A stretch of 64,000 nucleotides of DNA from Elusimicrobiota bacterium (GCA_031423795.1 JANPGH010000001.1:1656-65655), one strand, 5' to 3'. Positions 8,521-64,000 are shown, counted from the first letter of the stretch. Made by a program: numbers and translations. The notes: generated from the letters alone by a model not told the origin.

Positions 8521-8523
8521 GGG

Positions 8524-46676: not shown

Positions 46677-46817
46677 TCCGATTACGGCACTTATCCGCAA
46701 ATATTTCTCGCGATCGACCCCCGGCACTTTTAAAAGTTTTCTGTGAATAACCGCGCGGAAAATCATAAATCTCCCCCCCATTGAGGAAATGATGTTTTCC
46801 TGTTACACTGAGAGAGC

Positions 46818-47021: not shown

Positions 47022-47487
47022 CGCCCCCAAGGAGCAGCAGTCCGAATTCGAGCAGCTCATCGCCGCGTTCAATTCACGCGATGTCGAGTACGCGATCATC
47101 GGGGGCTACGCGGTCGCCCATCATGGCCATGTCCGCAACACTCAGGATCTCGATATATTTGTGCGCGCGACGGCGAAAAATGCGAAACGGATTGTCCTGG
47201 CCTTGCGCGACGTGGGGTTTCGCGAATCCGAAATAACCGAAGAAGCTTTTACGCATGACAACGGCGTTCGCCTCGGCGCCGTTCCCACCCAAATCGATGT
47301 CATCGCCTATTTGCCCGGCGTCGATCAGGACGGAGTGTGGTCAAGACGGGAAAACGGCAAATTTGGCGTGGAGACAGCCTATTTCATTTCCCGCGAGGAT
47401 CTTCTCGATAATAAGCGTTTCGTCGCTCGTCCTCAGGATCTGGCTGACGCGAAGACTCTCGAATCTATCAAATCAAAGAAGACGTGA
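47014..47487 (+). CDS. Nucleotidyltransferase-fold protein (minimal NTase-like)
   Basis: 157 aa. VEYAIIGGYAVAHHGHVRNTQDLDIFV resembles the G(G/S)...D.D NTase core. Confidence 0.55.
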   Translation: MSNAPKEQQSEFEQLIAAFNSRDVEYAIIGGYAVAHHGHVRNTQDLDIFVRATAKNAKRIVLALRDVGFRESEITEEAFTHDNGVRLGAVPTQIDVIAYLPGVDQDGVWSRRENGKFGVETAYFISREDLLDNKRFVARPQDLADAKTLESIKSKKT

Positions 47488-47550
47488 TCGGGACAGGCGC
47501 TTAACAATTCTGTTAACTTATTTCCAAGCGCCGGCTTTATAATAGACGCT

Positions 47551-49395
47551 GTGTCGGATCACTCCCCCGAGGACTTAAGCCGCGAGATCGACCGCCTGTG
47601 GGCGCGGGTTGGTTCCGCGATGCCCGAGGCGACAAGCGTCGCGGCGATCTCGGCGACCACGGCGACGAGCAGCGTCGTCGGTGCTGAGGTCGCGTGGGAG
47701 ACCGTGGGACTGCTCAAGCGTCAGATGCGCCAAAGCGAAAGCTCTTGGCGCCAAACCATGGACGCTCGCGACGAGGCGATGCGCGTGTTGCGCGCGCGGC
47801 TAGAATCCGCCGAGAACGAATTGTCCGGGCTTCGCGCCCACGCCGACAACGAGGACCAGCGTATTTTGGTCGACACACTCGATGCTCGCGAAAAAGTCGA
47901 AACCGCGCAGAAAGCCCTGAATTTGGCTCAGGCGCGGTATAACGATGAGCGCCGGATTCTCGAGGAGGCTATGCAAAGCCTCAGGGAGCGCCTGGCCGCC
48001 GAAAATTCCCGCTCACGCTCGACCGAAGCGCGTTGGCAGAGCCGGGAGCAGCAGTATGTGATCGATCTTCAAGAGCTCCAAAACATTGCCGCGCGGCGCG
48101 AGAAGGAGGCGGCGCAGGCCCAAAGTGCTGCACGCGCGCTGCAAAACAATCTCGCTGAGGCCAAGAATGCGCTCGAGAAGACGCTGGCTGAGCTTTTGCT
48201 TGAGCGCAAGGAACGCGAGCGCGCTCACGGCGAGCGCGAGGCCGCGCAGAAGAACGTCGCTGAGCTGCGCACGCATGTCGACGAACTTTCGAAGATTTGG
48301 GAAGAGGAGCGCGCGCAATGGAAAGAGCTCTGGGACCGTGAGCGCGCGTCCTGGGAGTCGCGGCGCGCGGAACTTGCCAAATGGGAAGAGGATCTGCGTC
48401 GCGAGCGCGAGGCGTGGCACGCGGAGCTTAAAGTCAAAGAAGCCGCGCACCTGGCCATTACCGACGATTTGTCCGGGAAAATCCGCGAGACCGCCCAAAA
48501 CGCTGAGAAAATGACGGAATTGATCGAGACTTTCGATCGCAAAACGACCGATGACACGCACCGCGCCGCCGAAAGTTTGGTCGCGATGGCCGCTAATGAG
48601 CGGTCGCGCCAGCGTAGAGTACGGCGCTGGGCGACCTTCGTTGTGACAGTGGTCATCGCTGGTGCTGCTTTCATACCGGTTCAGCGCGCCGCGCAAACTT
48701 GGCGTTACACCGCTGAGTCCGGCACGCCGGCGCCGGTACCCAATCCGTCGGCAATGGGCTTCGACGGAGATTTGTTATGGATCGCCGATTGGGGCGGCCG
48801 GCTCGTCGGGGTTGATCCGGCCGATCCGCGCCGCGTGCTGCGCCAAGCCAATCCCGCTCCCGCCGGTCCCTACCACCCGACCGCGATCGCTGCCGGCGGT
48901 GGCCTGCTGTGGACATTAGACGCGGCACAGCCCCGCCTGTTGCGTCATTCCGCGGGCAATCCCGAAAAAATATTATCGGTGCGGCCGTCGCCGGGTGCGG
49001 CTCCAACCGCGCTGGCCTATGACGGCGAAACCGTGTGGTCCTATGACGCGGTCGATCATGCGTTGACGCGACATGGCGGCGACGATGCGCCCGCGCAGAA
49101 ATTTGCCTTCCCCGACGACGCCGTCCCCAACGCGATGGCTTGGTCGAGGGGACGCCTGTGGGTCCACGACGCGAAGGGCCACCGAATATTAGTCTATTCA
49201 GTCGACGGCGCTCGCCTGTGCCGCGTCGATATGGCTCCTGCCCCGGAAGCCGGAGCGCTCGGCATGGTCGTCGCCGACGGCGCCTCCGCCCGCGAGCGCC
49301 GCGTGCGTTTCCTGCTCGGTCCGACCGGCGCGCGCCTGGCCGCAGAAGTCGTCCGCTACCGTATTCGCCGCTGGCTACCTTTTGCCCATTATTAA
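47551..49395 (+). CDS. Bitopic protein: N-terminal coiled coil, one TM, C-terminal beta-propeller-like repeats
   Basis: 614 aa with a GTG start 7 nt after TATAAT (47538-47543). TM WATFVVTVVIAGAAFIPV. The C-terminal part has repeated G..LW..D blades. Confidence 0.6.
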   Translation: MSDHSPEDLSREIDRLWARVGSAMPEATSVAAISATTATSSVVGAEVAWETVGLLKRQMRQSESSWRQTMDARDEAMRVLRARLESAENELSGLRAHADNEDQRILVDTLDAREKVETAQKALNLAQARYNDERRILEEAMQSLRERLAAENSRSRSTEARWQSREQQYVIDLQELQNIAARREKEAAQAQSAARALQNNLAEAKNALEKTLAELLLERKERERAHGEREAAQKNVAELRTHVDELSKIWEEERAQWKELWDRERASWESRRAELAKWEEDLRREREAWHAELKVKEAAHLAITDDLSGKIRETAQNAEKMTELIETFDRKTTDDTHRAAESLVAMAANERSRQRRVRRWATFVVTVVIAGAAFIPVQRAAQTWRYTAESGTPAPVPNPSAMGFDGDLLWIADWGGRLVGVDPADPRRVLRQANPAPAGPYHPTAIAAGGGLLWTLDAAQPRLLRHSAGNPEKILSVRPSPGAAPTALAYDGETVWSYDAVDHALTRHGGDDAPAQKFAFPDDAVPNAMAWSRGRLWVHDAKGHRILVYSVDGARLCRVDMAPAPEAGALGMVVADGASARERRVRFLLGPTGARLAAEVVRYRIRRWLPFAHY

Positions 49396-49461
49396 CATTC
49401 TCTTAATCCTCCTGAAACGTACGTAGTGTATAATCCGGTTCGCACAAAAAATGACAACAAC

Positions 49462-52400
49462 ATGTTTCGCCACCACCGCAGTCTGAAGTCCGCCTTCGTC
49501 CTCGTCGCTCTCGCGATGATTTCCTCCGTTTTTGCCACCGCAGGATCCGTACAAGTGGCGGTCAATACGGCTTTCATCGTCGATAGCAGCGGACTCGGGG
49601 CGACCTGCGCCGTTACTGCGGGTAGCGGTGGAACGGCCTATTATGATTGCTTGGCTCCCGACGTCGGCGCCAATGTCCCGACGCCGCAAAATCATTTCAT
49701 CGCCAACGATCCAGAAATTCAATTTGCTGATAATGGCCTCAGTCGCTGCAACCTCGCTGGGGCAGCAGCTAATCCAAATATCCCAGGCACAATCGGCCGC
49801 AATGTCTGCAACTCACAGCTTCTTCTCTGCGCGCAGGTCAGCGTCAACCAGGATGCTGCCCCAGCGTCTTTGGCGTTGGATAAAGTCTCTTTTGAAGTTT
49901 TTCGCTACATCGATGGGTCAAATCCCCTGGATCCTGCTTCCACCCCACCCTTGCGCACCATGTTTATCGATTCCGCCGGATCCGTGTCCGGCCCCGGTTT
50001 TCTTCCTTCCTCGGGGCACGCTTATTGCGTGATGTGGGATGGATCCCAGTCAATCCAGGGTTCGTTAGGAAAAATAAATGGTCAGTACGGCTTTCGCGTG
50101 GCGGTGGAAACCAACCAGCAAGGCGCCAGCGGTCAAATCGTCATTACCGCCGTCAGGGCCTATCCTTCCGGTGGCGTGACATACGACGGTTCGGGCGGCC
50201 CGCCCTACACGGCCGTCGCGCCGAAAGCCATTACGGTCAACGTCAACGACGTTCACGTCGTACGGTCGACCCCCACCATCGTCGGCCAGATCACGGGCGT
50301 TGCGGCGGAGCCCTACAACTTTACTTATCGCCTGTCGAAAGGCGCGACCATGTACCTCAATGTCAGCCAGTCGAATCCACCCTATTCATTGATCCGAACC
50401 GTCGTTCCCGCTCTGCAGAGGACCGGCGAGGGCGACCTCGGAACTCAGAACGCGGTTCCTATCGTCAACGGTGATTCCTGGGACGGTCGCGATTCAAACG
50501 GGAATTTCATGCCCGCTGGCAACTATTTGGCGTCATTCCAGTCTAACTCGATGACGCTGTACTCGAATACTCTTGTACAGGGAGACCTGTCGGCGCCGAC
50601 CACGGTTCAAATCGGCCTTGATCCTCTGCAAATCACCGATATACGAGTCCAACCGCTGCTGGGAGGAGCGACGTCGCTCGCCGTGCTCTCCTATATGTTG
50701 ACCGAGCCGGCGACGGTCTATATAGAAGTATATTCGCCGGGAACGCAGTTCTGCAATGACTCGAACAATATAGCGGCTTTAAACGACCTGCCTACCTCCG
50801 CTATTCCGGGAGTCAATTATTTGAGCGCCAGCTCCGGCGGATGTATTCCGGGCGGAGGAGCTGTGGCACCCGTTCAGCCGTTGCGCTCGATTGTCCAGCA
50901 GCAGACATTCCGCACTCCTATCCTTTCCTATTGGGATGGTCGGGATTCCTCCGGTAATTTGGTCGGTGACGGTGATTATGTGTTCGTGATTTACGCGACA
51001 CTCCCTTCACAGCGGGGAGCCATCTTCGACGGTAACGCCGCAGATCGCAGAATTTGGACCACACAAGGAAAAATAGGGTTTATTTCCGTTTTGCGCGGAC
51101 TTGTGGGGCTGACTCAGGTGACGCCCACGACCACGGTCATCGGTTCCAGTCCGGCAATCTCCGGGCTCAATCCCTTCTCGTTCCGCTATCAACTGTCGCG
51201 CGACGCGACCGTCTCCTTGAAGATTTTCGACGCGACCGGAAGCATTCTGATAAAAACGATCGTGGATCGAGAGACACGCCCCGGTTTCTTCAATAACGTC
51301 GAGCCATGGGTTGATGGAACCGGCAATGACGGCCGCGCTCTCTCCTCGGGCACTTATCTCGTTCAGCTGACTGCCTACGACCCGGCCTTCCCTGCGAGAA
51401 TCTCGACGACTACCGCCCTTTTCCCGATCAACATGTACCGCATCACCGACGTATCGATCGTTCCACTGCTCGCGGGCGCATCAGACCAGGTTGTGCTCAG
51501 CTATCAGCTGTCGCAGCCGATGTTCGTTGCCTGGAACGTGTATCCGCCGGGTTCGATCGTGGTCAACAGCACCGGTGCGTGGCCTCCGTGCGTCGGCCAG
51601 TCCCCGCCCAGTGCCTGCACAAGCGCATCCGTCGTCAATCCAAGCGGGATACCCGTCAGTCCCGTGGTCACCTTCCACGGAATGCGCCCCGGCCGCCTGC
51701 GCATCTCCGAATTCTGGGACGGTCGGGATACAAACGGACTGTTCGTCCCAGACGGAAATTACGTTTTCACCTTGGTCGCGCAGACCACGACGACGCCGCA
51801 GTACTACACGTCCGACCATATTTTTGGAACCATCACCGTCGCGCGTGGCTCAATCATCTTCCTGAACTTCAGCGTGACTCCCGACGTTCCCGTCCTTTTC
51901 AACTCGAGCAACACGATCACGCTGCATCCTTACACGATCAGCTACACGCTTTCGCGCCAATCCTCGGTCACCATTCAAATTTTGAACACGACCCTTCCCG
52001 CGGCCGTCGTGCGCACACTGGTATCGGGCTCGGTGCGCGAGGGATCGATCCTGCAAACCGATATTTGGGATGGCCGCGACGATAGGGGTAATTTCTTGCC
52101 CGCAGGCTTCTACCTGGTGCGGGCGGTGGCCTCCGACGTGGCGTCAGCGCTGACTTCAGGGACGACGGCGCAGGCAGCCATCTCCTACGATCCACTGCGC
52201 ATTTACGATCTTGCGGTGACGCCGATCACCTTTGGAGGTGGTGGCGCGATAATCGCGTATCAAGTCTCCGAGTCGATGAAGGTATCGATCAAAATCTACA
52301 AACCAGGGACCACCTTCGACTCGGCGGGAACGCCATCTCAACCCGACTCCGTATCCTTGGTTCGCCGCATCGTCGGAATTCGGCCGGGCCGCACGCTGAT

Positions 52401-52920
52401 CCAGGACGTATGGGACGGCCGCGACTTCCGAATGGCCCTGGTTCCGGACGGCGTTTATCGCTTCAAGATCGTCGGCTCGACCGATCCGACCGCCATCGAC
52501 AGCATTACCGGCAATATTTTAAATCCGGCGGTGTTGGCCACAGACCGCCCCATCGACGATATCCCCGTCGCAACCGACGGTGCGGCTGGGGATGCCGGCA
52601 CAAATTTTGATCACGATACTTTCGTCTATCCCAATCCAGTCACCGGGAATTCGGCGGTCGTCAAGATTTTCATGCCGTATACCGGCCGAGCGATTTTCAA
52701 TCTTTACACCATCGCCGGACAATTGGTTTACAGCCGAACTATGGAGGGCATGTCCGCCAATCACCTCTGTTCAGGAGACTGCAATTCGTTCACCTGGAAC
52801 AAGGTCAACGCCAGCGGACGCACCCTTGCTCGTGGTTTGTATTACGCCGTCATCCGTGTCGAGGAAACTCAAGGCAGCGGGACCGTTTATCAAACGGTTA
52901 AGAAGGTGTTGATCCCGTGA
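49462..52920 (+). CDS. Large surface protein: about 7 FlgD-Ig-like repeats plus a T9SS type A C-terminal sorting domain
   Basis: About 1152 aa from ATG 49462, with a signal peptide. The recurrent motif is WDGRD..G..(V/M)P.G.Y. The C-terminal VYPNPVTGNSAVVKI...LYTIAGQLV...GLYYAVIRV...KKVLIP fits the Por_Secre_tail pattern. Confidence 0.8.
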   Translation: MFRHHRSLKSAFVLVALAMISSVFATAGSVQVAVNTAFIVDSSGLGATCAVTAGSGGTAYYDCLAPDVGANVPTPQNHFIANDPEIQFADNGLSRCNLAGAAANPNIPGTIGRNVCNSQLLLCAQVSVNQDAAPASLALDKVSFEVFRYIDGSNPLDPASTPPLRTMFIDSAGSVSGPGFLPSSGHAYCVMWDGSQSIQGSLGKINGQYGFRVAVETNQQGASGQIVITAVRAYPSGGVTYDGSGGPPYTAVAPKAITVNVNDVHVVRSTPTIVGQITGVAAEPYNFTYRLSKGATMYLNVSQSNPPYSLIRTVVPALQRTGEGDLGTQNAVPIVNGDSWDGRDSNGNFMPAGNYLASFQSNSMTLYSNTLVQGDLSAPTTVQIGLDPLQITDIRVQPLLGGATSLAVLSYMLTEPATVYIEVYSPGTQFCNDSNNIAALNDLPTSAIPGVNYLSASSGGCIPGGGAVAPVQPLRSIVQQQTFRTPILSYWDGRDSSGNLVGDGDYVFVIYATLPSQRGAIFDGNAADRRIWTTQGKIGFISVLRGLVGLTQVTPTTTVIGSSPAISGLNPFSFRYQLSRDATVSLKIFDATGSILIKTIVDRETRPGFFNNVEPWVDGTGNDGRALSSGTYLVQLTAYDPAFPARISTTTALFPINMYRITDVSIVPLLAGASDQVVLSYQLSQPMFVAWNVYPPGSIVVNSTGAWPPCVGQSPPSACTSASVVNPSGIPVSPVVTFHGMRPGRLRISEFWDGRDTNGLFVPDGNYVFTLVAQTTTTPQYYTSDHIFGTITVARGSIIFLNFSVTPDVPVLFNSSNTITLHPYTISYTLSRQSSVTIQILNTTLPAAVVRTLVSGSVREGSILQTDIWDGRDDRGNFLPAGFYLVRAVASDVASALTSGTTAQAAISYDPLRIYDLAVTPITFGGGGAIIAYQVSESMKVSIKIYKPGTTFDSAGTPSQPDSVSLVRRIVGIRPGRTLIQDVWDGRDFRMALVPDGVYRFKIVGSTDPTAIDSITGNILNPAVLATDRPIDDIPVATDGAAGDAGTNFDHDTFVYPNPVTGNSAVVKIFMPYTGRAIFNLYTIAGQLVYSRTMEGMSANHLCSGDCNSFTWNKVNASGRTLARGLYYAVIRVEETQGSGTVYQTVKKVLIP

Positions 52921-53900
52921 GTAAATTGATCAGATTTTTCTTGGCGATCAACGTCCTCCTAGCGACCACTTCGTCCGCGGCCTGGGCGATTGATTCCGCA
53001 GCGGGCACCAGTGCTGCCCAATTTATGAAGATCGGCCAAGGATCTGCTCGCGCGATGGCTCTGGGAGGAGCTTACGTCGCATTGGCCGAAGGCTCGGACG
53101 CGATGTCCTGGAATCCGGCCGGTCTGGCCGCGACCCAGCAGCGGGAATTCGCCTTCTCATATCTGCGCCATCTTCAAACCCTCGATTCGCCATTATATCT
53201 GGGATACGCGCATCCGATGGGTCGCACGACCTGGGGCGGGAATTTCGGTTACATGTCCGACAGCTTGACGGGCACCGACGTCCGTGACACTTCTGGCTAT
53301 ATCCAGCAGGGTACGAACGTTACTGTTCGTGATTTTTACGGAGCGATCGGCTTGGCGAGGTCGTTCATGTATGAAAAACTCTTTTTGGGCGCGGCGATCC
53401 GGGAAGTTCATGAAGAGATCGCGGGCTCCAAACATGACACGTTTGCGGGGGACTTCGGCGTCATTTTCAAACCGACGAACATACTATCCCTGGGTTTCGC
53501 CCTCCAGAATTTCGGCGCCAGCGATGCCAATATCGCGCGAGTCCTGCGCGGCGGGGCGGCGCTGCGGCTCAACGATTTCGTGACATTCTCCGGTGAATTG
53601 AATAAAGCGACCGATGACGGCACGCACATCGCGCTCGGCGGCGAATTCCAGTTGCCGGAAGAATATCTAGACGTGGGACAAATCACCATGCGCATCGGAT
53701 ATAAGAGCGGCCAAGGCTACGGCCAGAGCTTTTCTGGCGTGCTTAAATCTCTGAAGTTGGACCAGAGCAGCGGATTGTCTTTTGGACTAGGCGTGTACAC
53801 GTCGCAGGCGTTCGGTTACGGAGTCGCGATCGATTACGCGTTCGTGCCATACGGGGCGCTGGGGACGGTCGACCAGATTTCATTCAAGTTGAAATTTTAA
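52917..53900 (+). CDS. PorV/PorQ-family outer-membrane beta-barrel
   Basis: 327 aa with a signal peptide. Motif GSARAMALGGAYVALAEGSDAMSWNPAGLA. GTGA overlap with the upstream cargo gene. Confidence 0.7.
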   Translation: MSKLIRFFLAINVLLATTSSAAWAIDSAAGTSAAQFMKIGQGSARAMALGGAYVALAEGSDAMSWNPAGLAATQQREFAFSYLRHLQTLDSPLYLGYAHPMGRTTWGGNFGYMSDSLTGTDVRDTSGYIQQGTNVTVRDFYGAIGLARSFMYEKLFLGAAIREVHEEIAGSKHDTFAGDFGVIFKPTNILSLGFALQNFGASDANIARVLRGGAALRLNDFVTFSGELNKATDDGTHIALGGEFQLPEEYLDVGQITMRIGYKSGQGYGQSFSGVLKSLKLDQSSGLSFGLGVYTSQAFGYGVAIDYAFVPYGALGTVDQISFKLKF

Positions 53901-53921: not shown

Positions 53922-53950
53922 TTGACACTGATATGGACGGCTGTTAAACT
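53922..53950 (+). promoter_or_regulatory. Promoter TTGACA-N17-TAAACT, 7 nt before the first pilin ATG (leaderless)
   Basis: TTGACA at 53922-53927, TAAACT at 53945-53950 and ATG at 53958. Confidence 0.6.
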
Positions 53951-53957
53951 GACGGCG

Positions 53958-54137
53958 ATGCGAAAGCGGTTTATACCTCGGACATTATTAGGGAAGAAGG
54001 GCCAGACGGTCGTGGAGTACCTTTTGACGACGCTGACGCTCGTGACATTGTTCGCGGGGATGTACGGATTCTTGCAGGGGCAGCTTAAGACCTTGTTTCG
54101 CATCGCCGGGATTAAAATTTTGACGCCGTATTACTAA
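53958..54137 (+). CDS. flp: Flp-type pilin 1
   Basis: 59 aa. The class III signal is KKG/QTVVEYLL, matching G/xxxxEY, and a hydrophobic helix follows. Confidence 0.7.
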   Translation: MRKRFIPRTLLGKKGQTVVEYLLTTLTLVTLFAGMYGFLQGQLKTLFRIAGIKILTPYY

Positions 54138-54168
54138 CGTGAAATCGCAAGAAGGAGAGAGCGCGACC

Positions 54169-54381
54169 ATGAAATTGACTGAGTTCGGAGCGGTAATTCG
54201 ACGCCGGCTTACCAGCCGGCGTGGGCAGAACACCGTCGAATACTTGCTGATGTTGACTGTCGTCGTCGGTGTCGTTCTGGTGGCAGGAGTGGCGTTGAAG
54301 AAATTCATGCCGACTCTGTTTAACCAGATCCAGCAAATGATCTCGGGAGCCGCTGGACAGATGGGCTCGGGCGGCGGCTGA
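54169..54381 (+). CDS. flp: Flp-type pilin 2 (Gly-rich C-terminus)
   Basis: 70 aa. SD AAGGAGAG lies about 9 nt upstream. The signal is RRG/QNTVEYLLML. Confidence 0.75.
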   Translation: MKLTEFGAVIRRRLTSRRGQNTVEYLLMLTVVVGVVLVAGVALKKFMPTLFNQIQQMISGAAGQMGSGGG

Positions 54382-54390
54382 TCCGTCTTC

Positions 54391-54426
54391 CGCTCCGGTC
54401 CGCATGGACCGGGGCGGAGGCGGTTT
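54391..54426 (+). terminator. Hairpin (11 bp, GCAU loop) with a weak U-tract after the pilin genes; possible attenuator
   Basis: CGCUCCGGUCC-GCAU-GGACCGGGGCG at 54391-54416, followed by GAGGCGGUUUAA. Confidence 0.4.
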
Positions 54427-54444
54427 AAGCGTCACAAATGATTC

Positions 54445-54882
54445 GTGAGGAGTCGAATAAAATGTCGGTCTGGTCAAGTGGTCGTCGAAATGTTGCTGAT
54501 CCTTCCCGTATTCCTGGGAATGATCTTCATGATCATGGAAATCGGCTACGTGTCGTTTCGTTTGATCGTTCTCAACCATGCGACGTACGAAGTGGCGCGC
54601 GTTGGCGGGATGACGTGGTTTTCGCCAGTCGGAGGGCCGAGCAAGGTCGCAGGCGTAATGCAGAGGATTCTGCCCGAGGCAGTAGTGCAATGCCTTCCGG
54701 ACAAGACCATGCGCGATCCGCAGGCGGACCAGGACAATTTCGATTTGGTGTGTACGGGAACGGAAGACGTGGCGTTGATTTTTCCCATCAGCAGCGTCGT
54801 CCTCGCCAAACCGGCGCGCAGCGGCAAGCGCCGGCTGGTGGCGGTCGTAAGAATGCCGATTGAGCAGCCATTGAGGAAGTAA
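54445..54882 (+). CDS. TadE-like pseudopilin
   Basis: 145 aa with a GTG start. The signal is RSG/QVVVEMLLILPVFL, and HATYEVARVG is present. Confidence 0.65.
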   Translation: MRSRIKCRSGQVVVEMLLILPVFLGMIFMIMEIGYVSFRLIVLNHATYEVARVGGMTWFSPVGGPSKVAGVMQRILPEAVVQCLPDKTMRDPQADQDNFDLVCTGTEDVALIFPISSVVLAKPARSGKRRLVAVVRMPIEQPLRK

Positions 54883-54904
54883 ATAGCGGACCAGGACACA
54901 AACC

Positions 54905-55660
54905 ATGGAAAAGAAAGGCGTGCTGATTCCGACGGTGTTGGCGATAGTTGCGGCGGTGTTCTACATGATCGTGCTGATGAGCAAGGAGAAATCCCTCACC
55001 GCCGACTATGAGAAGACGACCGTGCTTATCGCCCGCGCCGATATCCCGGAGCGCACCGTGCTGCGCGAAGACATGGTCGACAAGCTGGAAATCCCGCGCA
55101 AGTTCATGCAACAGGACGATTTCGAGGTTAAGACCCAGTCCGACATGAAGCTGATCGTTAATTTGGTGACGCGCACCCGCATCCCTAAGGGCAATCAGGT
55201 CACGATGTCGTCCTTGGTGTCGATGTCGCCGGAGTCCGGCCTCAGCGTGAAGATCCCTCCCGGATACCGCGGCGCGATGCTACCAATCGAGCCAGAAATG
55301 AAAATCCTGGTTAAGCCGGGCGATCGCGTCGACGTGCTGGTGACTTTCGAGGCGATGATGAACGACGGCCGCAAGGAAAAAGTCACCGCGACGATCCTGC
55401 AGAACGTGCTGGTGATCGCGGTGGGCACCAATCTCGGCCAGGGCATGAACGCCAAGCAGTTTAAGAACGCCCAAGCCACCGAGGAGAAAACGGCGGCCTT
55501 CGCGGAGAAGGCGACCGTCAGCCTGGCCTTAAATCCGACCGAGGCGCAGTATCTGGCGCTCGCTCTCAAGCAGGGCGATCCGACCGTGATCATGCGCGGC
55601 CTCGGCGACATCGAGATGCATCCGCTCGAGATGGCCAGCTTCCGCAAGCTTTTCCGATGA
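54905..55660 (+). CDS. cpaB: Flp pilus assembly protein CpaB/RcpC (SAF domain)
   Basis: 251 aa. An N-terminal TM is followed by VLIARADIPERTVLREDMV. Confidence 0.8.
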   Translation: MEKKGVLIPTVLAIVAAVFYMIVLMSKEKSLTADYEKTTVLIARADIPERTVLREDMVDKLEIPRKFMQQDDFEVKTQSDMKLIVNLVTRTRIPKGNQVTMSSLVSMSPESGLSVKIPPGYRGAMLPIEPEMKILVKPGDRVDVLVTFEAMMNDGRKEKVTATILQNVLVIAVGTNLGQGMNAKQFKNAQATEEKTAAFAEKATVSLALNPTEAQYLALALKQGDPTVIMRGLGDIEMHPLEMASFRKLFR

Positions 55661-56406
55661 AGAAGACTTTTTGGACGGCGATGGCTCTTCTCGCGCTGAC
55701 CGCGCCACGGGCCTCCGCGCAGCCGGAGGACTCTTTAATCGCGATCTCAGCCGACATCGTCGAGATCTCGGGATCTTACGAGAGGGACCTCGGATTTGCG
55801 TGGACTCCGTTTCAAGCGGGGGTCAATTTCGCCGAAAAGGCCATCCCCGTGGGGAGCATCATCAGGATCGGGGACTTCGCCCGACAAACCCAACTGCAAA
55901 GCTCGCTGAAGTTGCTGGAGACGGAGGGCAAAGCGCAGTTGCTGTCCAATCCGAAGGTCATTGTGCAGGCGCAGTCTCAGGCTAACTTTGTGGTCGGAGG
56001 CGAACAGCCTTATCCGACCGCTAACGGCAACGGAACCGTGACGACCGATTTCAAGAAGTTCGGCGTGATCATGAATATCGTGCCGGTGATCAACCCCAAT
56101 AAGAAGGACACGATTCGCGCGGAATTACAGCTCGAGGTTTCCAACGTTGATTTTTCCAAGACGGTCCAAGTCGGCAACACGGCGGTGCCCTCAATCGTTA
56201 CGCGCCAGCTGCAGACCGCCGTGGAAGTCAAAAGCGGCGAGACGCTGGTGATCGGGGGACTTAAGTCCAGCACCAAGAACTCGTCGAAGACGAAAGTTCC
56301 CTTTATCGGCAGCATCCCGATCATTGGCCTGCTGTTTACCCAGACGCAGGTCACCGAAACCCAGGTCTCTTTGTTTCTGTTCATCACGATGGAAATCGTG
56401 AAGTAA
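55657..56406 (+). CDS. Minimal secretin (secretin core only, 249 aa)
   Basis: It has a signal peptide. Motifs are LLSNPKVIVQAQSQANFVVGGE, FGVIMNIVP and VPFIGSIPIIGLLF. ATGA overlap with cpaB. Confidence 0.8.
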   Translation: MKKTFWTAMALLALTAPRASAQPEDSLIAISADIVEISGSYERDLGFAWTPFQAGVNFAEKAIPVGSIIRIGDFARQTQLQSSLKLLETEGKAQLLSNPKVIVQAQSQANFVVGGEQPYPTANGNGTVTTDFKKFGVIMNIVPVINPNKKDTIRAELQLEVSNVDFSKTVQVGNTAVPSIVTRQLQTAVEVKSGETLVIGGLKSSTKNSSKTKVPFIGSIPIIGLLFTQTQVTETQVSLFLFITMEIVK

Positions 56407-56419
56407 GAGTCACCCAACC

Positions 56420-58747
56420 ATGGCCGATACGCAGGCGAGCTCCGAGGCGTTCGTCCAGACCTCCGTCAAGGAGCCTGGGCGAGTCGTCGTATTTACCGGC
56501 CCGAAAGAAGGCGTCGGTAAAAGCACGACATGCCTGAATCTTGCGCTCGCGTGGGCCGGCAGCCAAAACCGCAAAGTCGTGATCGTGCACATGGACCCAC
56601 TGTGCCGCAACGACATTAGTTTCGTGCTCGGGGGGAGCTCTCCGTCGCTAGCGAGCATGGCCAATTTGGTGGGGGAAAGCCCAACTGGAGGACTCGGCCG
56701 CTTGCTGAAAGGGCGCATTCCGATCTCGCAGTGGGGAGTGGGACTTCTGCCGCTGGCGGCGTCGCGCGCGGAATTTTCAAAACTCACGCCGAATTTGGTC
56801 GCGAAGATCCTGGGGTCCTTGGCCGAGAGTTACGACCTCTTCATCGACGTGGATCCCTATTTCCCGCTGCAGATTTTCTCGTTCGATCTGGCTGATCTCA
56901 TTTTTTGGGTGTGTCTGCCCCAGCGGGCCCATTTTGAGGCCACGTACTCTCTGTTTAACGATATCAAAGCCCTCCATTTCCCGCTCGAAAAATTTGAGAT
57001 CGTCATCAACCAGGCGAACCTCCCGGGCGCGTTGGCCCCGAAAGAGGTCGGTCGATTTTTCCACGCGATGCAGAAAACCGTGCTGGCCTACATGCCCTGG
57101 GACGACTACATTCCGGAGTATTGGAACACCCAGCGCATTCTCGTCGTCGAGCAGCTCCAAAGCGAGTGGGTGAAATCCCTGCGCACCTTGCTCGGCCGGG
57201 TCATGGAGATGAAACCTTCGGTCAAGCAGTGGGAAAGCAGCATGGGCGCCGACGAGTTCGTTTCCTCATCGGAGCTATTATGGAGGCCCACCGCGGCGGT
57301 GGCGGCCGCCAATGCAGCAGAGGCAACTAAGGCAATCAAGCCGACCGCAGTCGGGCCGGTACCCGATTTCTGGGATGAGTTGAAGGGCAAAATGCACAAA
57401 TTCGTCGTCTCGGCGATGGAGACCGAGCGCATCCGAATTTCTGAGGACCCGAAGCAAAACGAAGACAATCGGTCGAAGGTCAGCCAGATCATCGATAATC
57501 TCCTGCAGCGAGAGGAAAATCTGGCGCTTTCTCGTGCGCAACGCCAGCAGTTCGTCGTTGAATTGGTTGACGAGATTCTGGGTTTCGGGCCGCTTCAACA
57601 GTTGCTGCGCGACCCCACGATCAACGAAATCATGGTCAACGGCTACGATCGAATTTACATCGAGCAGAAAGGCCAACTGATTCTTCTTCCGACCCGCTTT
57701 CGCAACGATGAGCAAGTCGTGCAGGTCATCAAGCGCATCGTCGCCCCGGTGGGACGGCGCATCGACGAGTCGGTGCCGCTGGTCGACGCGCGGCTCAAAG
57801 ACGGGTCGCGCGTGAACGCGATCATTGCACCCCTAGCGATTTCGGGGCCCACGCTGACGATTCGTCGTTTCTCAGCCAAGCCGTTCACACACAAGCAGCT
57901 GGTTGCCTTCGGCTCCTGCACGCAAGGATTCATCGACTTCCTTAGCGCGACGGTGATCATCAAGAAGAATATTTTGATCTCCGGCGGCACTGGCACTGGT
58001 AAGACGACATTTTTAAATATGCTTTCGAATTTCATTCCCGAGGGCGAGCGCATCGTAACCGTGGAAGATACGGCCGAATTGCGGCTGCTCGCCGATCATT
58101 GGATTCGCCTGGAATCTCGCCCTCCGAATATCGAGGGCAAGGGGGAGATCACGATTCGCGACCTGATCAAGAACTGCTTGCGCATGCGCCCGGACCGGAT
58201 CATCGTCGGCGAGTGTCGCGGCGGCGAGGCGTTGGACATGCTTCAGGCGATGAACACGGGGCACGAAGGCTCGCTGGCGACCCTGCACGCAAATACTCCG
58301 TCGGACGCCATTTCTCGCTTGTCGGCGATGTGTTTGATGGGCGGTACCGATCTTCCGATGAGCGTTCTAGTCGACATGATCTCGAGCGCGGTCAACGTGT
58401 TCATCCAAATAACCCGCTTCCCGGACGGCAAGCGCCGCGTGACTTACATCACTGAGTGCGTGGGACGCGACGGCGCGAAAATCCTGACCCGCGATATTTT
58501 TCGCTTCATTCAGACGTGGATGGACGAAAAGGGAACGACTTACGGTTATTTCACCGCGTGCGACTATATCCCCAAGTTCATGGAGGAGATAAAGCTCAAG
58601 GGCATCACCATCCCAAAAGAGGCCTTCATCAGCGAGCGCACCAAGAAAAAGAATGGGCTTGCGAATGCGATCGACGACATGTTGAGGGCTGGTCTGCCGG
58701 TTCCCGACGACGCCGAGGCAGTTGCGTCGTCGAAAGGAGTGTTCTGA
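56420..58747 (+). CDS. Fusion of a TadZ/CpaE-like ParA/MinD ATPase and a TadA/CpaF secretion ATPase
   Basis: 775 aa. The N-terminal part has [16 protein letters not shown]. An Ala-rich linker follows. The C-terminal part has [24 protein letters not shown] and [13 protein letters not shown]. Confidence 0.85.
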
Positions 58748-60267
58748 TGCGCGCTCTGGCGCTTCTTGCCGTCTTGACTCTCGCCGCCGGGGCTCCCGTT
58801 TGCGCGCAGCAAGTCTTCACACGCGAACAAGGCCAGGCCCTATTCGACAAGAAGGACGGCGCTGAATTCAAGGTCCAGGTTTTCTACCACTACTTTAAGC
58901 GCGACCGCGATCCCAGCGTGCCAGCGCCGAAATGGGTCGCAGCGACGCTTGACGCGATGCTCAAGCGCGCCGTCTGGCAGGACCCCGATGAGGGTGTGCT
59001 CAACGAGGCCCAACTATGGCAGGCGCCGGTGTCCGTCCTATACGAGTTCTTCGAATTGGTACGCAAAAGCCTGCCGCCCGATCCATACGGGGGGCAACTA
59101 ATACCGCCGGGCAACCTCGTACGCGATTACGAGGACAACCGCGTACGTTTCCAGATGTCGCTCGATCGACTCGTCCGGTCGCGGTTGGGAAGTTCTCTTG
59201 GCGGACGCGGGCGCGCGGTGATTGCGCACTTCGACTTGATCAACAAGCAGCTCGACTCCGTAATGGACGGCCTAATCAACGGGGATACGCAGCGCTACAA
59301 GGACGGGGTCATCGCCATCGGAGCGTTGAGCAATGGGGCGTTCGACGTCCTGCAGGCAGCGCCCCGCGGCTACAATGACCCGTCGATAACAACCGACAAG
59401 AGCGCCAAGGACATAGCACTCTTCTTCCTTTGCTTTGGCATCATCGCGATGGCCATCGCGGGCTTTATGCTGGGGACGTTGAATGAGGAAAAAATCAGCA
59501 TTGGCATTGCCCGCTACCGCACGAAGGCCACGGAATGGGCGCACGAATATGAGCGCCAATTCATTGCGATCAAAATCCATTATTTGGTCGGCGTGCCAAT
59601 CGTCCTGGGAGCCTTGGCGGGCCTGCTGTCCTTTGACATTTTCGGCTTCCTGATTTTCACCGGTTTCGGTGTGTATGCGGGGCTGACTATTCCGGGCTGG
59701 CTTTTGCGCAACATCCGTTTCCGTCGCGGGCAGAAAGTCGAGGCCCAGCTCATGGACGCGATGATCTTGATGTCAAACGGGCTCAAATCGGGCATCGACT
59801 TGATTGGTTGCATTGAGATGGTGACCAAGGACTGCGCGCCGCCGATTTCAGAAGAGTTCGGTTTGTGCCTCAAGAATTACCATTTGGGCACGCCGCTTGA
59901 GCGCGCGCTTGAGGGCGTTGAGGAGCGTGTGCAGAGCCGGCTCTTGTCGTACATGATCAAGGCCGTCAATATCCAGCGCTCGGTCGGCGGCAACCTAACC
60001 AAGATCTTTGACCGCATCGTCGAAAACATCCGCGAGGAATCGAAGCTGACGGAGAAAACGGCGGCGATGACCGCCCAGCAGCGCATCCAGGCCATCGTCG
60101 TCGGAGTGATGCCGTGGATCATGCTGATCATCATGTTCGTCTTTCAACCGCAAACGATGCGCGATTTCTATTTCTCGCCCATCGGTTTTTTCACGCTCCT
60201 GTTCTGCACCGTTTGGATCTCAATTGGCATGAAAATCGTCAATAAGCTCGGGGATATTAGCGTCTGA
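58747..60267 (+). CDS. tadB: TadB-like platform protein with an N-terminal ~200-aa secreted domain
   Basis: 506 aa from ATG 58747 (TGATG overlap). The order is a signal peptide, a soluble domain, TMs, and then a GspF/T2SSF-like region (LMSNGLKSGIDL...LERALEG). Confidence 0.7.
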   Translation: MRALALLAVLTLAAGAPVCAQQVFTREQGQALFDKKDGAEFKVQVFYHYFKRDRDPSVPAPKWVAATLDAMLKRAVWQDPDEGVLNEAQLWQAPVSVLYEFFELVRKSLPPDPYGGQLIPPGNLVRDYEDNRVRFQMSLDRLVRSRLGSSLGGRGRAVIAHFDLINKQLDSVMDGLINGDTQRYKDGVIAIGALSNGAFDVLQAAPRGYNDPSITTDKSAKDIALFFLCFGIIAMAIAGFMLGTLNEEKISIGIARYRTKATEWAHEYERQFIAIKIHYLVGVPIVLGALAGLLSFDIFGFLIFTGFGVYAGLTIPGWLLRNIRFRRGQKVEAQLMDAMILMSNGLKSGIDLIGCIEMVTKDCAPPISEEFGLCLKNYHLGTPLERALEGVEERVQSRLLSYMIKAVNIQRSVGGNLTKIFDRIVENIREESKLTEKTAAMTAQQRIQAIVVGVMPWIMLIIMFVFQPQTMRDFYFSPIGFFTLLFCTVWISIGMKIVNKLGDISV

Positions 60268-60268
60268 T

Positions 60269-61177
60269 ATGGCACCTATCGAACCTGCCCTGCATTGGAT
60301 GTTGTTCGTCATCGGCTTCTTGGGGTCGGCGGCGGCGTATACCGCGGTCAGCCGCTTGGCTGCGCCGACCGACGAGGGTGACGCCACCGACCTGTCAAAG
60401 CTCGCGAAGAGCCAAGTGGGAATGTCGTCTGCATTCTCCAGCCTCAACCCCAACGGCGGGTTCCTCGACCGGGTGGACCTGTTCTTGCTTCGCACCCTCT
60501 CCCTTGACGTAAAACTCGAGGAAATGAACATGATGATGGGTCGGCCGACGAAGCCGACGCCTATCGAGATGCTGCACATGAAGGAGTTCTTCGCTGGTTT
60601 TTTCGCCCTCGTACCGTTTTTCGTCACCGGCGAGTGGATATTCCTTATTTTCGGCGTGCTCGGCTTCCTGCTCCCCGATGTGTTTTTCAACAGTCGCATC
60701 CGCCAGCGCCAGCAGGACATCATGCGCAACTTTCCGACGACGGTCGATTTGATGGCACTTACCATCGAGGCGGGACTCGATTACATGGCGGCGATCGAGC
60801 GCATCCTCAAAAACGTCCGCGCGGAGCAGCGCACCGAGCTCGAAAAGGAGCTCGAAAAGATGCTCAACGAGGTCCGTCTCGGCTACACGAGGCGAGACGC
60901 GCTGAAAAGGCTGGCGATGCGCACGGGGATCCCTGCGGTCCGCTCGTTTGTCGGCCTGATCATCCAATCCGATGAGCTGGGAACCAGCCTCGTCGAACTC
61001 CTGCGCAACTACGCCGCTGACATGCGCTTCCGGCGCTTGAATAAGGCCGAGAAGCTCGCTGCGCAGGCGTCGACCAAAATGCTGATCCCGCTGTTCTTGT
61101 TCATTTTCCCGACTGTGTTCATCATGATGCTGGCGCCGATGATGAAGAGCCTCATCCAAGGAGGCCTCGGATTCTGA
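60269..61177 (+). CDS. tadC: TadC-like platform protein
   Basis: 302 aa. T2SSF-like region: FPTTVDLMALTIEAGLDYMAAIERI...GTSLVELLRNYA. Confidence 0.75.
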   Translation: MAPIEPALHWMLFVIGFLGSAAAYTAVSRLAAPTDEGDATDLSKLAKSQVGMSSAFSSLNPNGGFLDRVDLFLLRTLSLDVKLEEMNMMMGRPTKPTPIEMLHMKEFFAGFFALVPFFVTGEWIFLIFGVLGFLLPDVFFNSRIRQRQQDIMRNFPTTVDLMALTIEAGLDYMAAIERILKNVRAEQRTELEKELEKMLNEVRLGYTRRDALKRLAMRTGIPAVRSFVGLIIQSDELGTSLVELLRNYAADMRFRRLNKAEKLAAQASTKMLIPLFLFIFPTVFIMMLAPMMKSLIQGGLGF

Positions 61178-62538
61178 TGATGTCCTCGCTTTTCGCCGTT
61201 ATGCTGGTGTCCGCAGCCTTGACTCCGGCCTCCGCCCAAAGCCAAGAGGCAGCCACCGCGAAGATCAAGGAGACCGAAGGGTTATTCCTGGACATGTCCA
61301 AGCTTAAGCTTGGCACCGTCACAACCGAGGACGACAAGAAAAAATACGTCTACACGATCCAGCTCGAGAAGGCGCGCCTGACGCGCAAGACGCTGAAAAT
61401 CGTCTACGAAAATGCGTACGAACTTTACCGTGCGGGGCAGTACGAGGAAGCCAACGAGCTCACGCGCCGCATTCTGTCGATCGATCCCGGCTATGAGGAC
61501 GCGTCGATTCTTAACCGTGCGACGTTAGATCTGAAGGGGTCCGCTGCGCCGCGAATGTCGGAACGCCGTTTGTTGGACGATCGGTTCGAAGAAGGCCTGG
61601 CCCTGTATCGTCAGGGGCGCCTCCCTGAGGCCGCCGAAAAGTGGGACGAAGTCGTCAAGTTGTCGCCGGGCAATTTAAAGGCGCGTTATTGGCTGAGGAA
61701 GGCGCGCGGAGAGATGGCCGAAGAGCACTTTCGCCGTGGACAAAAGGCGTATCGCCAGCATCGGCTGCGGGAAACCCTGGATCAATGGTATGCGGCCCTG
61801 GTCTTGAATCCTCGTTATCCAAAATTGACTCAGGCGATCGCCAAAGTCGAGGCCGAGGAGCGTGAGCAGGAAGCCAATGAGAAGTTGCAGTCGGCGCTCA
61901 ATCTTTACAGCCAGGGGTTGGTCCTTGAGTCGCTCAAAATGCTCGACCAGGTGCTTGAGGCTGGCCCCGGCAACGTGAAGGCTCAGAAACTTCAAGCCGA
62001 GATTCGCGCCGAAGTCGCCAACCAGCACGTGGCCGAAGGGCGAAGGTTGTATGAGTCTCGCCAATACGAAAAAGCGATTTCCGAATGGAAAGTTGCAGTC
62101 GATTACGGCTACGATCCGAAGGCGTCTTCCCAACTCGTCGCGCGGGCCAAGGAGCAGATGCGTCGCGAGGAAGCGGCGCGCAAACGCGCCTCCGAAATTG
62201 CCAAGGAGAAGGAAGAGGACGCCAAGAAGAGGCAAGAGGAAGAGGCTAAGCAGGCGGCTGTCGACGCCAAGAAGGCCGAGGAGGATAAAGCCAAGGCCGA
62301 GGCTGACGCGAAGGCCGCGGCGGCTTCGGGCCAAGCCCCGGCCAACCCTGGTGCCACGTCGGACACCGCCAAGCAACAGTCCAACCAGGCGTATGGCGAC
62401 GGCATGATATTCTTCCAGCAAGGTAACTACGATAAAGCCCGCGAGAAATTCCTCCAGGCCAAGCAGCTGGATCCCGGCAACGCCGACGCGGCCAGCGGTC
62501 TGGAACGCATCGAAAAACTTTACGGAGCTGGGCAGTGA
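61177..62538 (+). CDS. Secreted TPR-repeat protein with a Lys/Glu/Ala-rich insert (TadD-like role possible)
   Basis: 453 aa with a signal peptide and several TPR units. The charged insert is KEKEEDAKKRQEEEAKQAAVDAKKAEEDKAKAEADAKAAA. Confidence 0.7.
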   Translation: MMSSLFAVMLVSAALTPASAQSQEAATAKIKETEGLFLDMSKLKLGTVTTEDDKKKYVYTIQLEKARLTRKTLKIVYENAYELYRAGQYEEANELTRRILSIDPGYEDASILNRATLDLKGSAAPRMSERRLLDDRFEEGLALYRQGRLPEAAEKWDEVVKLSPGNLKARYWLRKARGEMAEEHFRRGQKAYRQHRLRETLDQWYAALVLNPRYPKLTQAIAKVEAEEREQEANEKLQSALNLYSQGLVLESLKMLDQVLEAGPGNVKAQKLQAEIRAEVANQHVAEGRRLYESRQYEKAISEWKVAVDYGYDPKASSQLVARAKEQMRREEAARKRASEIAKEKEEDAKKRQEEEAKQAAVDAKKAEEDKAKAEADAKAAAASGQAPANPGATSDTAKQQSNQAYGDGMIFFQQGNYDKAREKFLQAKQLDPGNADAASGLERIEKLYGAGQ

Positions 62539-63656
62539 AACTCTCGTACAAATGGTTTCTTTGGTTCACGGGCATCGGTATTTATGTGATGTTCTTGGGC
62601 GGGATTTTCTACTACAACCTCTTCAAGTGGACTTTCGACGAGAAGCTCAAGCAAGAGTCAATTGATATGGTGCGCCTCTACGCCCCAACATTGATCGAGG
62701 GGCTTTCGCGCAACCAAGGCGTGATCACGATGGGCGAGTTCGACACCGTGTCCCGATTTTCGAAGGACGATCGGATCGCGTCGCTTGTCTACCTTAATAA
62801 ATACGGCGAAGTCCGCTGGTTTAAGGACGCCTCGATGATCACCAAGACGTTCGAGGATTTCACCAAGCAGGTGACGCTGCCGACCGACGCCATCGAGCAG
62901 GCCTGGCTGTCGAAAACCCCGATCGTGCGCGCGGTGCCGAACATGCCCTTGTATGACATCGCAATTCCACTAGCGTTGCGCGGCGACGTGCTGGGCGTTC
63001 TCGACATGCAGGTGAGCCGCGAGGGCGTGGTCAAGGTCATCAACAAGGCGATGAACAAGTACGCCATCGGTGCGGTCGGCGTTTTGCTGCTGCTCGGCAT
63101 ACCGTTGTATTTTTTCCTGCATCATTTCGTCTTAAGCCCGATTTTAAATCTGCGCGACGCGGTCGAATCGATTTCCTTTAAGACTTTGGACCTAAGGTTC
63201 ACTCCACCCGGCGACGAAATCGGGGAACTCGCCGGCGTGCTGGGCATCTTCCTTTCCAAAGTAAAGGCCGAGATCGCCAATTCGATGGTGAAGGAAAAAC
63301 AGCGGGGCGCCGCCGAAGCACGTTGGTGGGAGTCGATCCTGCGCGCGGTCGTTTCTAAAAATCACCGCGCGATCGTGGTAGACGAGGACAACACCGTTCT
63401 CTACACGAGTTTCTCGATCACCGGAACCGGGACGAGCGACGGTAAAATGCACTTGCTCGACGTAATCGACAGCCAGCAACAGGAAGTGCTACGTTTGGTT
63501 AGCGTCGCCCTGGATAATCCCAATCAGGTAAAGGAAGCCGATACCATGTTCCGTGCCGAGCCCTGCCACGTCAAGGCCGTCCATCTGGTGGAAGATGGCG
63601 ATATCAAGCGCACGCTGATCCTCTTCGAACCGAAAGCCGTCGGCGCCCGCCGCTGA
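62535..63656 (+). CDS. Membrane sensor module (periplasmic domain, HAMP, PAS-like) without a recognisable output domain
   Basis: 373 aa with two TMs. The HAMP region is LSPILNLRDAVESISFKTLDLRFTPPGDEIGELAGVLGIF. No HisKA, HATPase, GGDEF or MCP signalling motifs were seen. GTGA overlap with the upstream gene. Confidence 0.65.
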   Translation: MKLSYKWFLWFTGIGIYVMFLGGIFYYNLFKWTFDEKLKQESIDMVRLYAPTLIEGLSRNQGVITMGEFDTVSRFSKDDRIASLVYLNKYGEVRWFKDASMITKTFEDFTKQVTLPTDAIEQAWLSKTPIVRAVPNMPLYDIAIPLALRGDVLGVLDMQVSREGVVKVINKAMNKYAIGAVGVLLLLGIPLYFFLHHFVLSPILNLRDAVESISFKTLDLRFTPPGDEIGELAGVLGIFLSKVKAEIANSMVKEKQRGAAEARWWESILRAVVSKNHRAIVVDEDNTVLYTSFSITGTGTSDGKMHLLDVIDSQQQEVLRLVSVALDNPNQVKEADTMFRAEPCHVKAVHLVEDGDIKRTLILFEPKAVGARR

Positions 63657-63660
63657 CGCC

Positions 63661-63999
63661 ATGACCGCACTTCTCACCGCCGCCGAGTGCTTCAAATGCC
63701 TTCACCCGCTGGTGTTGCGCGCGGGCCAATGCGCGGAGTGCGGACACCCGCCCATGAAGGTTCTCGACCATGCCGACGAGCTGCCGCTGCAGTTTCTCGT
63801 TTCCGTCGCGGACAGGATGGGTTTGAGTCAGCTGATCCGCGAAGCGAAACTTGGCAGCGTCCAAGTCGACTTTAATTTCAACGAACTGTCGCGCGGCAAA
63901 TTCGAGGCCCTCCTCACTCGGTTCGAACGCGCGCCCACCGCCTACAATGAGCTTGCATTGAAGATCGCGGAGCATCCGCTCGCGACGCCAAGTCCCAAT
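63661..63999 (+). CDS. Partial CDS (runs off the window): zinc-ribbon protein
   Basis: I translated this frame myself: MTALLTAAECFKCLHPLVLRAGQCAECGHPP... It has CxxC-N11-CxxC and no stop before position 64000. It is absent from the supplied ORF track. Confidence 0.45.
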   Translation, partial: MTALLTAAECFKCLHPLVLRAGQCAECGHPPMKVLDHADELPLQFLVSVADRMGLSQLIREAKLGSVQVDFNFNELSRGKFEALLTRFERAPTAYNELALKIAEHPLATPSPN

Positions 64000-64000
64000 G

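Follow-up and report, generated by a model that had tools for sequence, protein, structure and literature searches.

Tad systems have previously been detected in Elusimicrobia using the MacSyFinder models for the superfamily of type IV filaments (TFF-SF) (PMC6668835), and a large Tad-like region has been described in Endomicrobium, E. proavitum and E. minutum (Stephens et al., PMC8809381). The locus described here is a predicted Tad operon located in a 64,000-nucleotide stretch of DNA from an Elusimicrobiota bacterium (GCA_031423795.1 JANPGH010000001.1:1656-65655), termed the window, and is characterized by a polypeptide joining TadZ to the ATPase TadA, by a minimal secretin and by an enlarged TadB. 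A polypeptide of the first kind is known from Bdellovibrio bacteriovorus, where the "TadZA hybrid protein" is composed of a ParA/MinD-like TadZ without the atypical receiver domain, a linker and TadA (10.64898/2026.07.08.737194; also PMC5430801). The TadZ-linker part of this protein binds the polarity hub RomR and the fusion is needed for function; the preprint treats the fusion as a possible selective advantage of that predator and does not report a wider distribution (10.64898/2026.07.08.737194). No TadV is present in any Bdellovibrio genome (Avidan et al., PMC5430801), and in B. bacteriovorus, where it is absent, Flp1 is processed by PilD (10.64898/2026.07.08.737194).

The contacts made by a Tad secretin are best seen in Pseudomonas RcpA, in which the N-domain (residues 28-112) is bound by a β-hairpin of RcpC, aligning the inner and outer membrane complexes (PMC12307814), and the last four residues bind the pilotin TadD (PMC10499894). 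KilC, the secretin of the Kil system of Myxococcus, is a uniquely short Tad-type secretin without N0 (Seef et al., PMC8460266). Set against these systems, the main added value of the present analysis is that TadZA is widespread beyond Bdellovibrio and that in Elusimicrobia it occurs alongside a secretin of minimal size and an enlarged TadB.

The operon consists of eleven co-directional genes on the + strand within positions 53958-64000, with junctions of -4 to +63 nucleotides that become tighter from cpaB onwards (-4 to +13 nucleotides) and with no stop codons inside any of the open reading frames (ORFs). The original prediction of a single co-directional operon with tight junctions and this gene content agrees with the ORF layout and with the Pfam, NCBIfam and PDB matches of the products. 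From a comparison set of 80 loci, five (L001-L005) were compared gene by gene, L001 being a syntenic locus within a 3.1-Mb Elusimicrobia contig and L002-L004 coming from three GTDB species representatives. The order giant FlgD-Ig protein, PorV-like protein, flp1, flp2, tadE, cpaB, short secretin, fusion, long tadB, tadC, TPR, HAMP-like is common to L001-L004, save that the L002 sequence stops after tadC, so that its TPR and HAMP-like genes lie outside it. The identity of the ATPase among these four loci falls to 51%. Because gene order, protein lengths and residues are conserved across Elusimicrobia, the locus is read as a functional system and not as one in decay, and a probability of about 0.8 is assigned to its being a chromosomal operon for the assembly of a Tad (type IVc, Flp) pilus in Elusimicrobiota, in the form that is standard for the phylum.

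The tadZA gene (56420-58747) encodes 775 amino acids arranged as a ParA/MinD-like domain (residues ~20-285), a linker (~285-350) and a CpaF/TadA ATPase (~354-728). Pfam places a CbiA/ParA-type P-loop domain at residues 23-171 and T2SSE at residues 388-666 (E = 1.2e-62), and residues 354-728 match the Caulobacter CpaF structures 9e24 and 8rjf (E = 4.5e-113), the closest solved relative. The TadZ part has a Walker A motif of the ParA/MinD type and matches MinD, FleN and, more weakly, the TadZ structure 3fkq in the PDB. It also matches the product of a separate tadZ gene that immediately precedes cpaF in loci of Firmicutes, Actinomycetota and Chloroflexota (E = 1e-14 to 1e-6). In one comparison locus, L016, the separate TadZ has the canonical layout of a receiver domain followed by a ParA domain; in the fused form there is no space for such a receiver, nor was a signal of one detected. 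From these matches the N-terminal domain of the fusion is taken to be a receiver-less TadZ equivalent. The prediction of a single 775-residue TadZ/CpaE-TadA/CpaF polypeptide is thus upheld by Pfam, by the PDB matches and by the single ORF.

Apart from a few truncated entries, the 120 best clusters of homologues found for the fusion are full-length, with 62-85% identity, and wherever a name is given they come from Elusimicrobiota metagenome-assembled genomes. Judged by ORFs and not by the span of tblastn matches, the whole fusion is encoded as one ORF in 16 loci. In addition to those of Elusimicrobia and two from genomes without classification (L005 and L009), they comprise five from Bdellovibrionota (L006, L008, L017, L020, which is the complete genome of Bdellovibrio sp. 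HCB288, and L023), one labeled "Deltaproteobacteria" (L007), two from Omnitrophota (L014 and L031) and one from WOR-3 (L011). Among representatives at 50% identity, at least 27 of the 150 best matches align with the fusion end to end, at lengths of 700-780 amino acids with one of 944. Full-length tblastn spans had also pointed to fusions in Firmicutes, Actinomycetota and Chloroflexota; these were rejected, the ORFs showing adjacent but separate tadZ and cpaF genes. Six other proteins of ~1150-1600 amino acids (P0361, P0362, P0363, P0092, P0093 and P0095) contain two to four CpaF-like stretches and are apparently tandem CpaF-CpaF fusions.

Its occurrence in Elusimicrobiota, Bdellovibrionota, Omnitrophota and WOR-3, four named lineages in all, means that the fusion is not tied to predation. 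A natural fusion of TadZ to CpaF is also evidence of the Rosetta-stone type that TadZ/CpaE is physically associated with the ATPase ring, at a time when the position of CpaE in the machine is still open in cryo-electron tomography of Caulobacter (PMC12637624).

The secretin gene (55657-56406) encodes 249 amino acids that comprise a signal peptide, a stretch of ~60 residues and the secretin domain, with no N-domain and no C-terminal tail. The Pfam Secretin match covers residues 86-249 and the whole of the profile (positions 1-169 of 169, E = 4.1e-40), so that the domain ends at the last residue of the protein. Among solved structures the closest is that of RcpA, the Tad secretin of Pseudomonas (PDB code 8odn), matched over residues 206-370 of 426 (E = 1.5e-27), and the protein aligns only to the inner core of the 315-607-residue secretins of other TadZA loci. 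Scanned alone against Pfam at lenient thresholds, the region N-terminal to the secretin domain gave nothing credible. An AlphaFold2 (AF2) model built from a 36-sequence alignment has a mean predicted local distance difference test score (pLDDT) of 55 and was not used for fold searches or domain claims. All 120 of the 120 best homologue clusters are 239-263 amino acids long, with many invariant residues, which bears out the prediction of an unusually short secretin of 249 residues. With N-domain and tail both missing, the contacts with RcpC and TadD would not be able to form as they do in Pseudomonas. The elements missing are exactly those for RcpC docking and pilotin docking, making this secretin a natural test of the minimum required for a working Tad conduit, and apparently no description of this degree of secretin reduction has been published.

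The gene preceding that of the secretin, cpaB/rcpC (54905-55660), encodes a 251-residue protein that is assigned by TIGR03177 (101.8 bits against a cutoff of 71) and by the Pfam RcpC and SAF domains and has one N-terminal transmembrane helix (residues 3-29). A PDB sequence search with CpaB gave no match.

Directly downstream of the fusion lie tadB (58747-60267, 506 amino acids) and tadC (60269-61177, 302 amino acids; Pfam T2SSF E = 5.1e-18; syntenic in L001-L005), adjacent genes for two half-size platform proteins with one T2SSF domain each, that of TadB being at residues 341-463. The topology of TadB is that of a signal peptide followed by a ~185-residue helical periplasmic domain, transmembrane helices, the cytoplasmic T2SSF domain and C-terminal transmembrane helices. 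Its AF2 model has a mean pLDDT of 82.5, rising to ~90 for the N-domain, and the hydropathy pattern puts the N-domain in the periplasm. A Foldseek search with the TadB model gives a match restricted to the cytoplasmic domain of EpsF/OutF/PilC (target-normalized TM-score ~0.7). For the N-domain, Foldseek finds no significant match in the PDB, the only hits being weak ones to PsbQ-like helical bundles at E > 1; a PDB sequence search with TadB gave no match, and a lenient Pfam scan of the N-domain alone gave nothing credible. The 120 best TadB homologue clusters are nearly all of ~500 amino acids, with a few shorter, and are again from Elusimicrobia wherever named; a hidden Markov model of the N-domain matches Elusimicrobia TadB only, among all of the loci fetched. 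The original prediction had given TadB an added secreted domain. The extension itself stands, and the signal peptide, AF2 model and hydropathy are consistent with a periplasmic part of TadB. Apparently no description of this periplasmic domain has been published. Since the secretin stays within 239-263 amino acids in all of its 120 best clusters and TadB near 500 in almost all of its own, the short secretin and the long TadB are, on this comparative evidence, stable and selected features of the lineage and not truncations or assembly errors.

The operon opens with two genes for Flp-like prepilins, flp1 (53958-54137, 59 amino acids) and flp2 (54169-54381, 70 amino acids), whose processing sites read GKKG/QTVVEYLL and SRRG/QNTVEYLL, respectively. 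Translation of flp1 is more likely to begin at the ATG at 53958 than at the TTG at 53922; its L001 homologue is likewise 59 amino acids long. Homologues of flp1 occupy the same position in L001-L004, and flp2 is conserved in L001-L005. Both products carry the G/xxxxEY motif (GQTVVEY in flp1, GQNTVEY in flp2), and their putative identity as pilins is assigned from this motif together with sub-threshold Pfam matches: flp2 lies just below the thresholds (Class_IIIsignal 23.3 bits against a cutoff of 23.7; Flp1_like E = 1.2e-4), flp1 has no relevant Pfam match and neither protein matches Flp_Fap. The third gene (54445-54882) encodes a 145-residue minor pilin that matches Pfam TadE with 37.8 bits (cutoff 22.9; E = 2.1e-9) and is the only TadE/TadF-type gene of the operon. 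A sigma-70-like promoter match (53922-53950, + strand; TTGACA, 17 nucleotides, TAAACT, with TG) lies just upstream of flp1 and agrees at 10 of 12 positions; a scan of 11 kb gave two such matches, where chance alone would give 4.2, so that the placement is suggestive and is no evidence of function. In the more distant TadZA locus L005, six flp-like genes are arranged in tandem (677-2096).

Consistent with the prediction that no prepilin peptidase is in view, a scan of all six frames of the window for the A24 peptidase motif G.GD[VIALFMT]K gave no credible match, and Pfam found no Peptidase_A24 in the window's remaining large ORFs, where housekeeping genes were seen. As a positive control, a slightly broader regular expression recovered a TadV-like ORF in ~20 of the 80 comparison loci. 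A TadV gene just downstream would have told against the prediction; in the syntenic locus L001 the 10 kb downstream of the operon hold no TadV, just a small membrane protein and two-component genes. Cleavage is probably by an A24 enzyme encoded elsewhere in the genome, as by PilD in Bdellovibrio. PilD is present in five of five Endomicrobium genomes analyzed by Stephens et al. (PMC8809381).

Two further genes are conserved at the end of the operon. The first (61177-62538, 453 amino acids; Pfam TPR_2, TPR_11 and TPR_1) encodes a secreted TPR protein in which no lipobox is seen on reading the sequence and which matches the TPR part of an Amuc_1098 family secretin (E = 3.9e-9). It is conserved in L001 and L003-L005 and is a possible TadD-like partner of the secretin. 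The second (62535-63656, 373 amino acids) encodes a membrane protein with two transmembrane segments (residues 7-26 and 175-204) that flank a periplasmic domain of ~148 amino acids and are followed by a HAMP-like segment and a 120-residue C-terminal domain of no assigned family. This gene too is conserved in L001 and L003-L005. It had been described as an output-less HAMP/PAS sensor. HAMP is seen only below threshold (17.3 bits against the Pfam cutoff of 25), and PAS finds no support, the isolated domains, including the C-terminal segment, giving no match to PAS or to any other family at lenient Pfam thresholds. As conserved operon members in Elusimicrobia and L005, the TPR and HAMP-like genes apparently have no published description.

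The last gene of the window (63661-64000) is partial, running past the window end, and had been counted in the system as a zinc-ribbon protein. The CxxC-x12-CxxC motif can be read in its sequence; membership of the system was rejected, as no homologue is found in L001-L004, and L001 and L003 carry a small multi-transmembrane protein in its place. After the operon, both L001 (17361-22328) and L003 (18561-20163) have this small multi-transmembrane protein, an OmpR-type regulator and a single-domain receiver, with a dCache-HAMP histidine kinase and a hybrid kinase in addition in L001. A 143-residue protein of L001 gave nothing credible in a lenient Pfam scan. Speculatively, the downstream receiver proteins of related genomes supply the receiver function missing from TadZA. 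The receiver-domain proteins encoded downstream in related loci may hint at a RomR-like partner.

A neighbor-joining tree of the CpaF domain, with 100 bootstraps and with sampling biased towards the query, places all of the MinD-fused ATPases in one part together with nine FHA-CpaF fusions and away from loci whose tadZ is a gene of its own (bootstrap 64/100). The MinD-fused members are from Elusimicrobia, Bdellovibrionota, Omnitrophota and WOR-3; a bootstrap of 100 is obtained for the Elusimicrobia group and likewise for that of Bdellovibrionota, and the TadZA of the window groups with those of Bdellovibrionota inside the clade supported at 64%. The FHA-CpaF loci, whose CpaF proteins are the nearest to the TadZA group in the tree (L019, L025, L043, L045, L046, L055, L056, L065 and L070, with the N-terminal FHA confirmed by Pfam in seven of the nine) come from Chromatiales, Thauera, Piscinibacter, Spirochaetaceae, Streptomycetaceae and others. 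The grouping suggests a CpaF subclade prone to N-terminal domain fusions.

This grouping with KilF-type FHA-CpaFs (64/100) raises the alternative that the locus encodes a contact-dependent Tad machine like the Kil or Bdellovibrio systems, one that serves in interaction with or attack on other cells and not in surface adhesion. The short secretin has its parallel in KilC, and TadZA and the missing TadV have theirs in Bdellovibrio. However, the tree support is moderate and was obtained by neighbor joining with query-biased sampling, Pfam finds no FHA domain in any protein of the operon, and the architecture occurs as well in lineages that are not known to be predatory. To our knowledge, these Elusimicrobia are not documented to live as predators or epibionts, and this alternative is considered improbable. 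The same low weight is given to a DNA-uptake (competence) pilus. The near-complete Tad system of Endomicrobium has been proposed to allow DNA uptake (PMC8809381), and transformation that depends on Flp pili is reported for Micrococcus (PMC4322843); that proposal for Endomicrobium is, however, itself speculative, and comEA, comEC and dprA are not seen by Pfam scans in or beside the operon. A decaying locus, with the 249-residue secretin as a truncation remnant and the fusion as a frameshift or assembly error, would fit a secretin of about half the usual length and the absence of a peptidase nearby, but this explanation has a barely appreciable chance and is effectively refuted by conservation: the secretin keeps its 239-263 residues, many of them invariant, over 120 clusters whose assemblies are independent, one ORF encodes the fusion in each of 16 independent loci, at least 27 clusters at 50% identity align with it end to end, and the junctions are tight with no internal stops.

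Several points weigh against the preferred assignment of a working Tad pilus operon in phylum-standard form. Both pilins fall below the Pfam thresholds. No prepilin peptidase is found in the window or within 10 kb of four to five related loci (L001-L005). The P-loop of the TadZ part is KEGVGKS and deviates from the K/RGGxGxS/T consensus, so that nucleotide binding by this part is uncertain. L005 has an equally short secretin together with a normal TadB of 292 amino acids that has no homologue of the N-domain; the two changes are therefore not strictly linked, which weakens a compensatory role for the TadB N-domain. The system is read here from its genes, and its function may be adhesion, DNA uptake or cell-cell contact.

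Under the reading as a Tad pilus operon, the two Flp-like prepilins and the TadE-like pilin would be cut after the conserved glycine of G/QxxVEY by an A24 prepilin peptidase with its gene elsewhere in the genome, most probably PilD of the type IVa pilus. The processed pilins would then be polymerized on the TadB-TadC platform, powered by the CpaF-type hexameric ATPase part of TadZA, which would carry the positioning or scaffold protein TadZ covalently at its N terminus in the form of the ParA/MinD-like domain only. The filament would cross the periplasm through a CpaB/RcpC ring and exit through a secretin cut down to its gate and barrel core. With neither the N-domain that docks RcpC nor the pilotin tail in this secretin, coupling of the inner and outer membranes and assembly of the secretin would have to use other contacts, with the secreted TPR protein and TadB's Elusimicrobia-specific periplasmic domain as candidates; that either or both replace the missing secretin contacts is speculative. 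The stronger proposal that Elusimicrobia have rewired the envelope spanning of the Tad machine, the secretin having lost its docking parts and the TadB domain with the TPR protein forming an alternative module for alignment and assembly, is tentative and rather unlikely to hold as a whole. The HAMP-like membrane protein and the downstream two-component genes of related genomes would probably regulate the system.

The genes upstream of the operon (45318-53900, + strand), whose membership of the Tad system is uncertain, encode a PorV/PorQ-like protein of 452 amino acids, a nucleotidyltransferase-like ORF of 157, a protein of 614 with no family, an FlgD-Ig repeat protein of 1164 that carries a type A sorting tail of the type IX secretion system (T9SS) and a second PorV/PorQ-like protein of 327. 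Matches to the 1164- and 327-residue proteins follow one another in L001-L004 as they do here. For the 452- and 614-residue proteins L001 has only similar-sized genes at the same positions, by size and not by homology, and the 157-residue ORF has no L001 counterpart. A functional coupling of the pilus to this adjacent syntenic surface-protein block is a further, tentative possibility, and apparently no description of a T9SS-tailed giant protein and PorV-like block beside a Tad locus has been published. Outside Bacteroidota, the presence beside a Tad locus of T9SS-style cargo and PorV pairs is unexplained. Elsewhere in the window, on the - strand, adjacent genes (7426-10485) encode subunits A and B of topoisomerase VI, a mainly archaeal enzyme, and a DDE transposase (DUF772 + DDE_Tnp_1; 31326-32645) lies amid housekeeping genes.

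Compared with the canonical Tad/Cpa systems of Aggregatibacter, Caulobacter and Pseudomonas, the operon shares TadE, RcpC/CpaB, the RcpA-type secretin domain, a CpaF-type ATPase, the pairing of TadB and TadC and an accompanying TPR protein, and its putative pilins carry the G/xxxxEY motif of those systems. It differs in that the TadZ/CpaE of those systems is separate with a receiver-like N-domain, whereas here it is fused and receiver-less, and in that their secretin has a VirB9-like N-domain (PMC12307814) and a TadD-binding tail (PMC10499894), neither of which is found here. Their locus usually holds TadV/CpaA, and TadF, TadG and RcpB are not present in the Elusimicrobiota operon.

With the Kil system of Myxococcus xanthus (PMC8460266, PMC12075869) the operon has in common an ATPase with an N-terminal fused domain and the lack of TadG and RcpB; TadD is missing from Kil, and a possible TadD-like protein here is the secreted TPR protein. 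The domain fused in KilF is FHA, in contrast to ParA/MinD here (PMC8460266), and Kil differs further in having many associated FHA proteins, two loci and a prepilin peptidase, KilA, in the cluster.

The likeness to Bdellovibrio is closer in the ATPase. Like Tad locus 1 of B. bacteriovorus, which holds tadZA-tadB, rcpA, rcpC and flp genes, the operon encodes a receiver-less TadZ-linker-TadA polypeptide and no TadV is encoded in the tad loci, and the order cpaB, secretin, tadZA, tadB is that of the Bdellovibrio locus L020. The Bdellovibrio secretin is ~500 amino acids long compared with 249 here, its TadB is ~295 amino acids long and has no periplasmic domain, its tadC is encoded elsewhere whereas tadC is adjacent here, and its P-loop is the canonical KGGVGKS compared with KEGVGKS; a RomR partner is known for Bdellovibrio.

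Three of the four points that had made the locus seem atypical, namely the fused ATPase, the lack of a peptidase and the shortness of the secretin, thus have published precedent. The original prediction, a subtype of type IV filament machine that might be undescribed, holds insofar as the system is of the Tad/Flp type with odd parts; the new subtype is overstated, because Tad systems of Elusimicrobia have been catalogued, TadZA has been described in B. bacteriovorus and KilC is a precedent for the short secretin. The basic picture of Tad pili is unchanged by these findings, and the operon is a variant, specific to its lineage, of the known Tad system rather than a type IV filament machine of a new kind.

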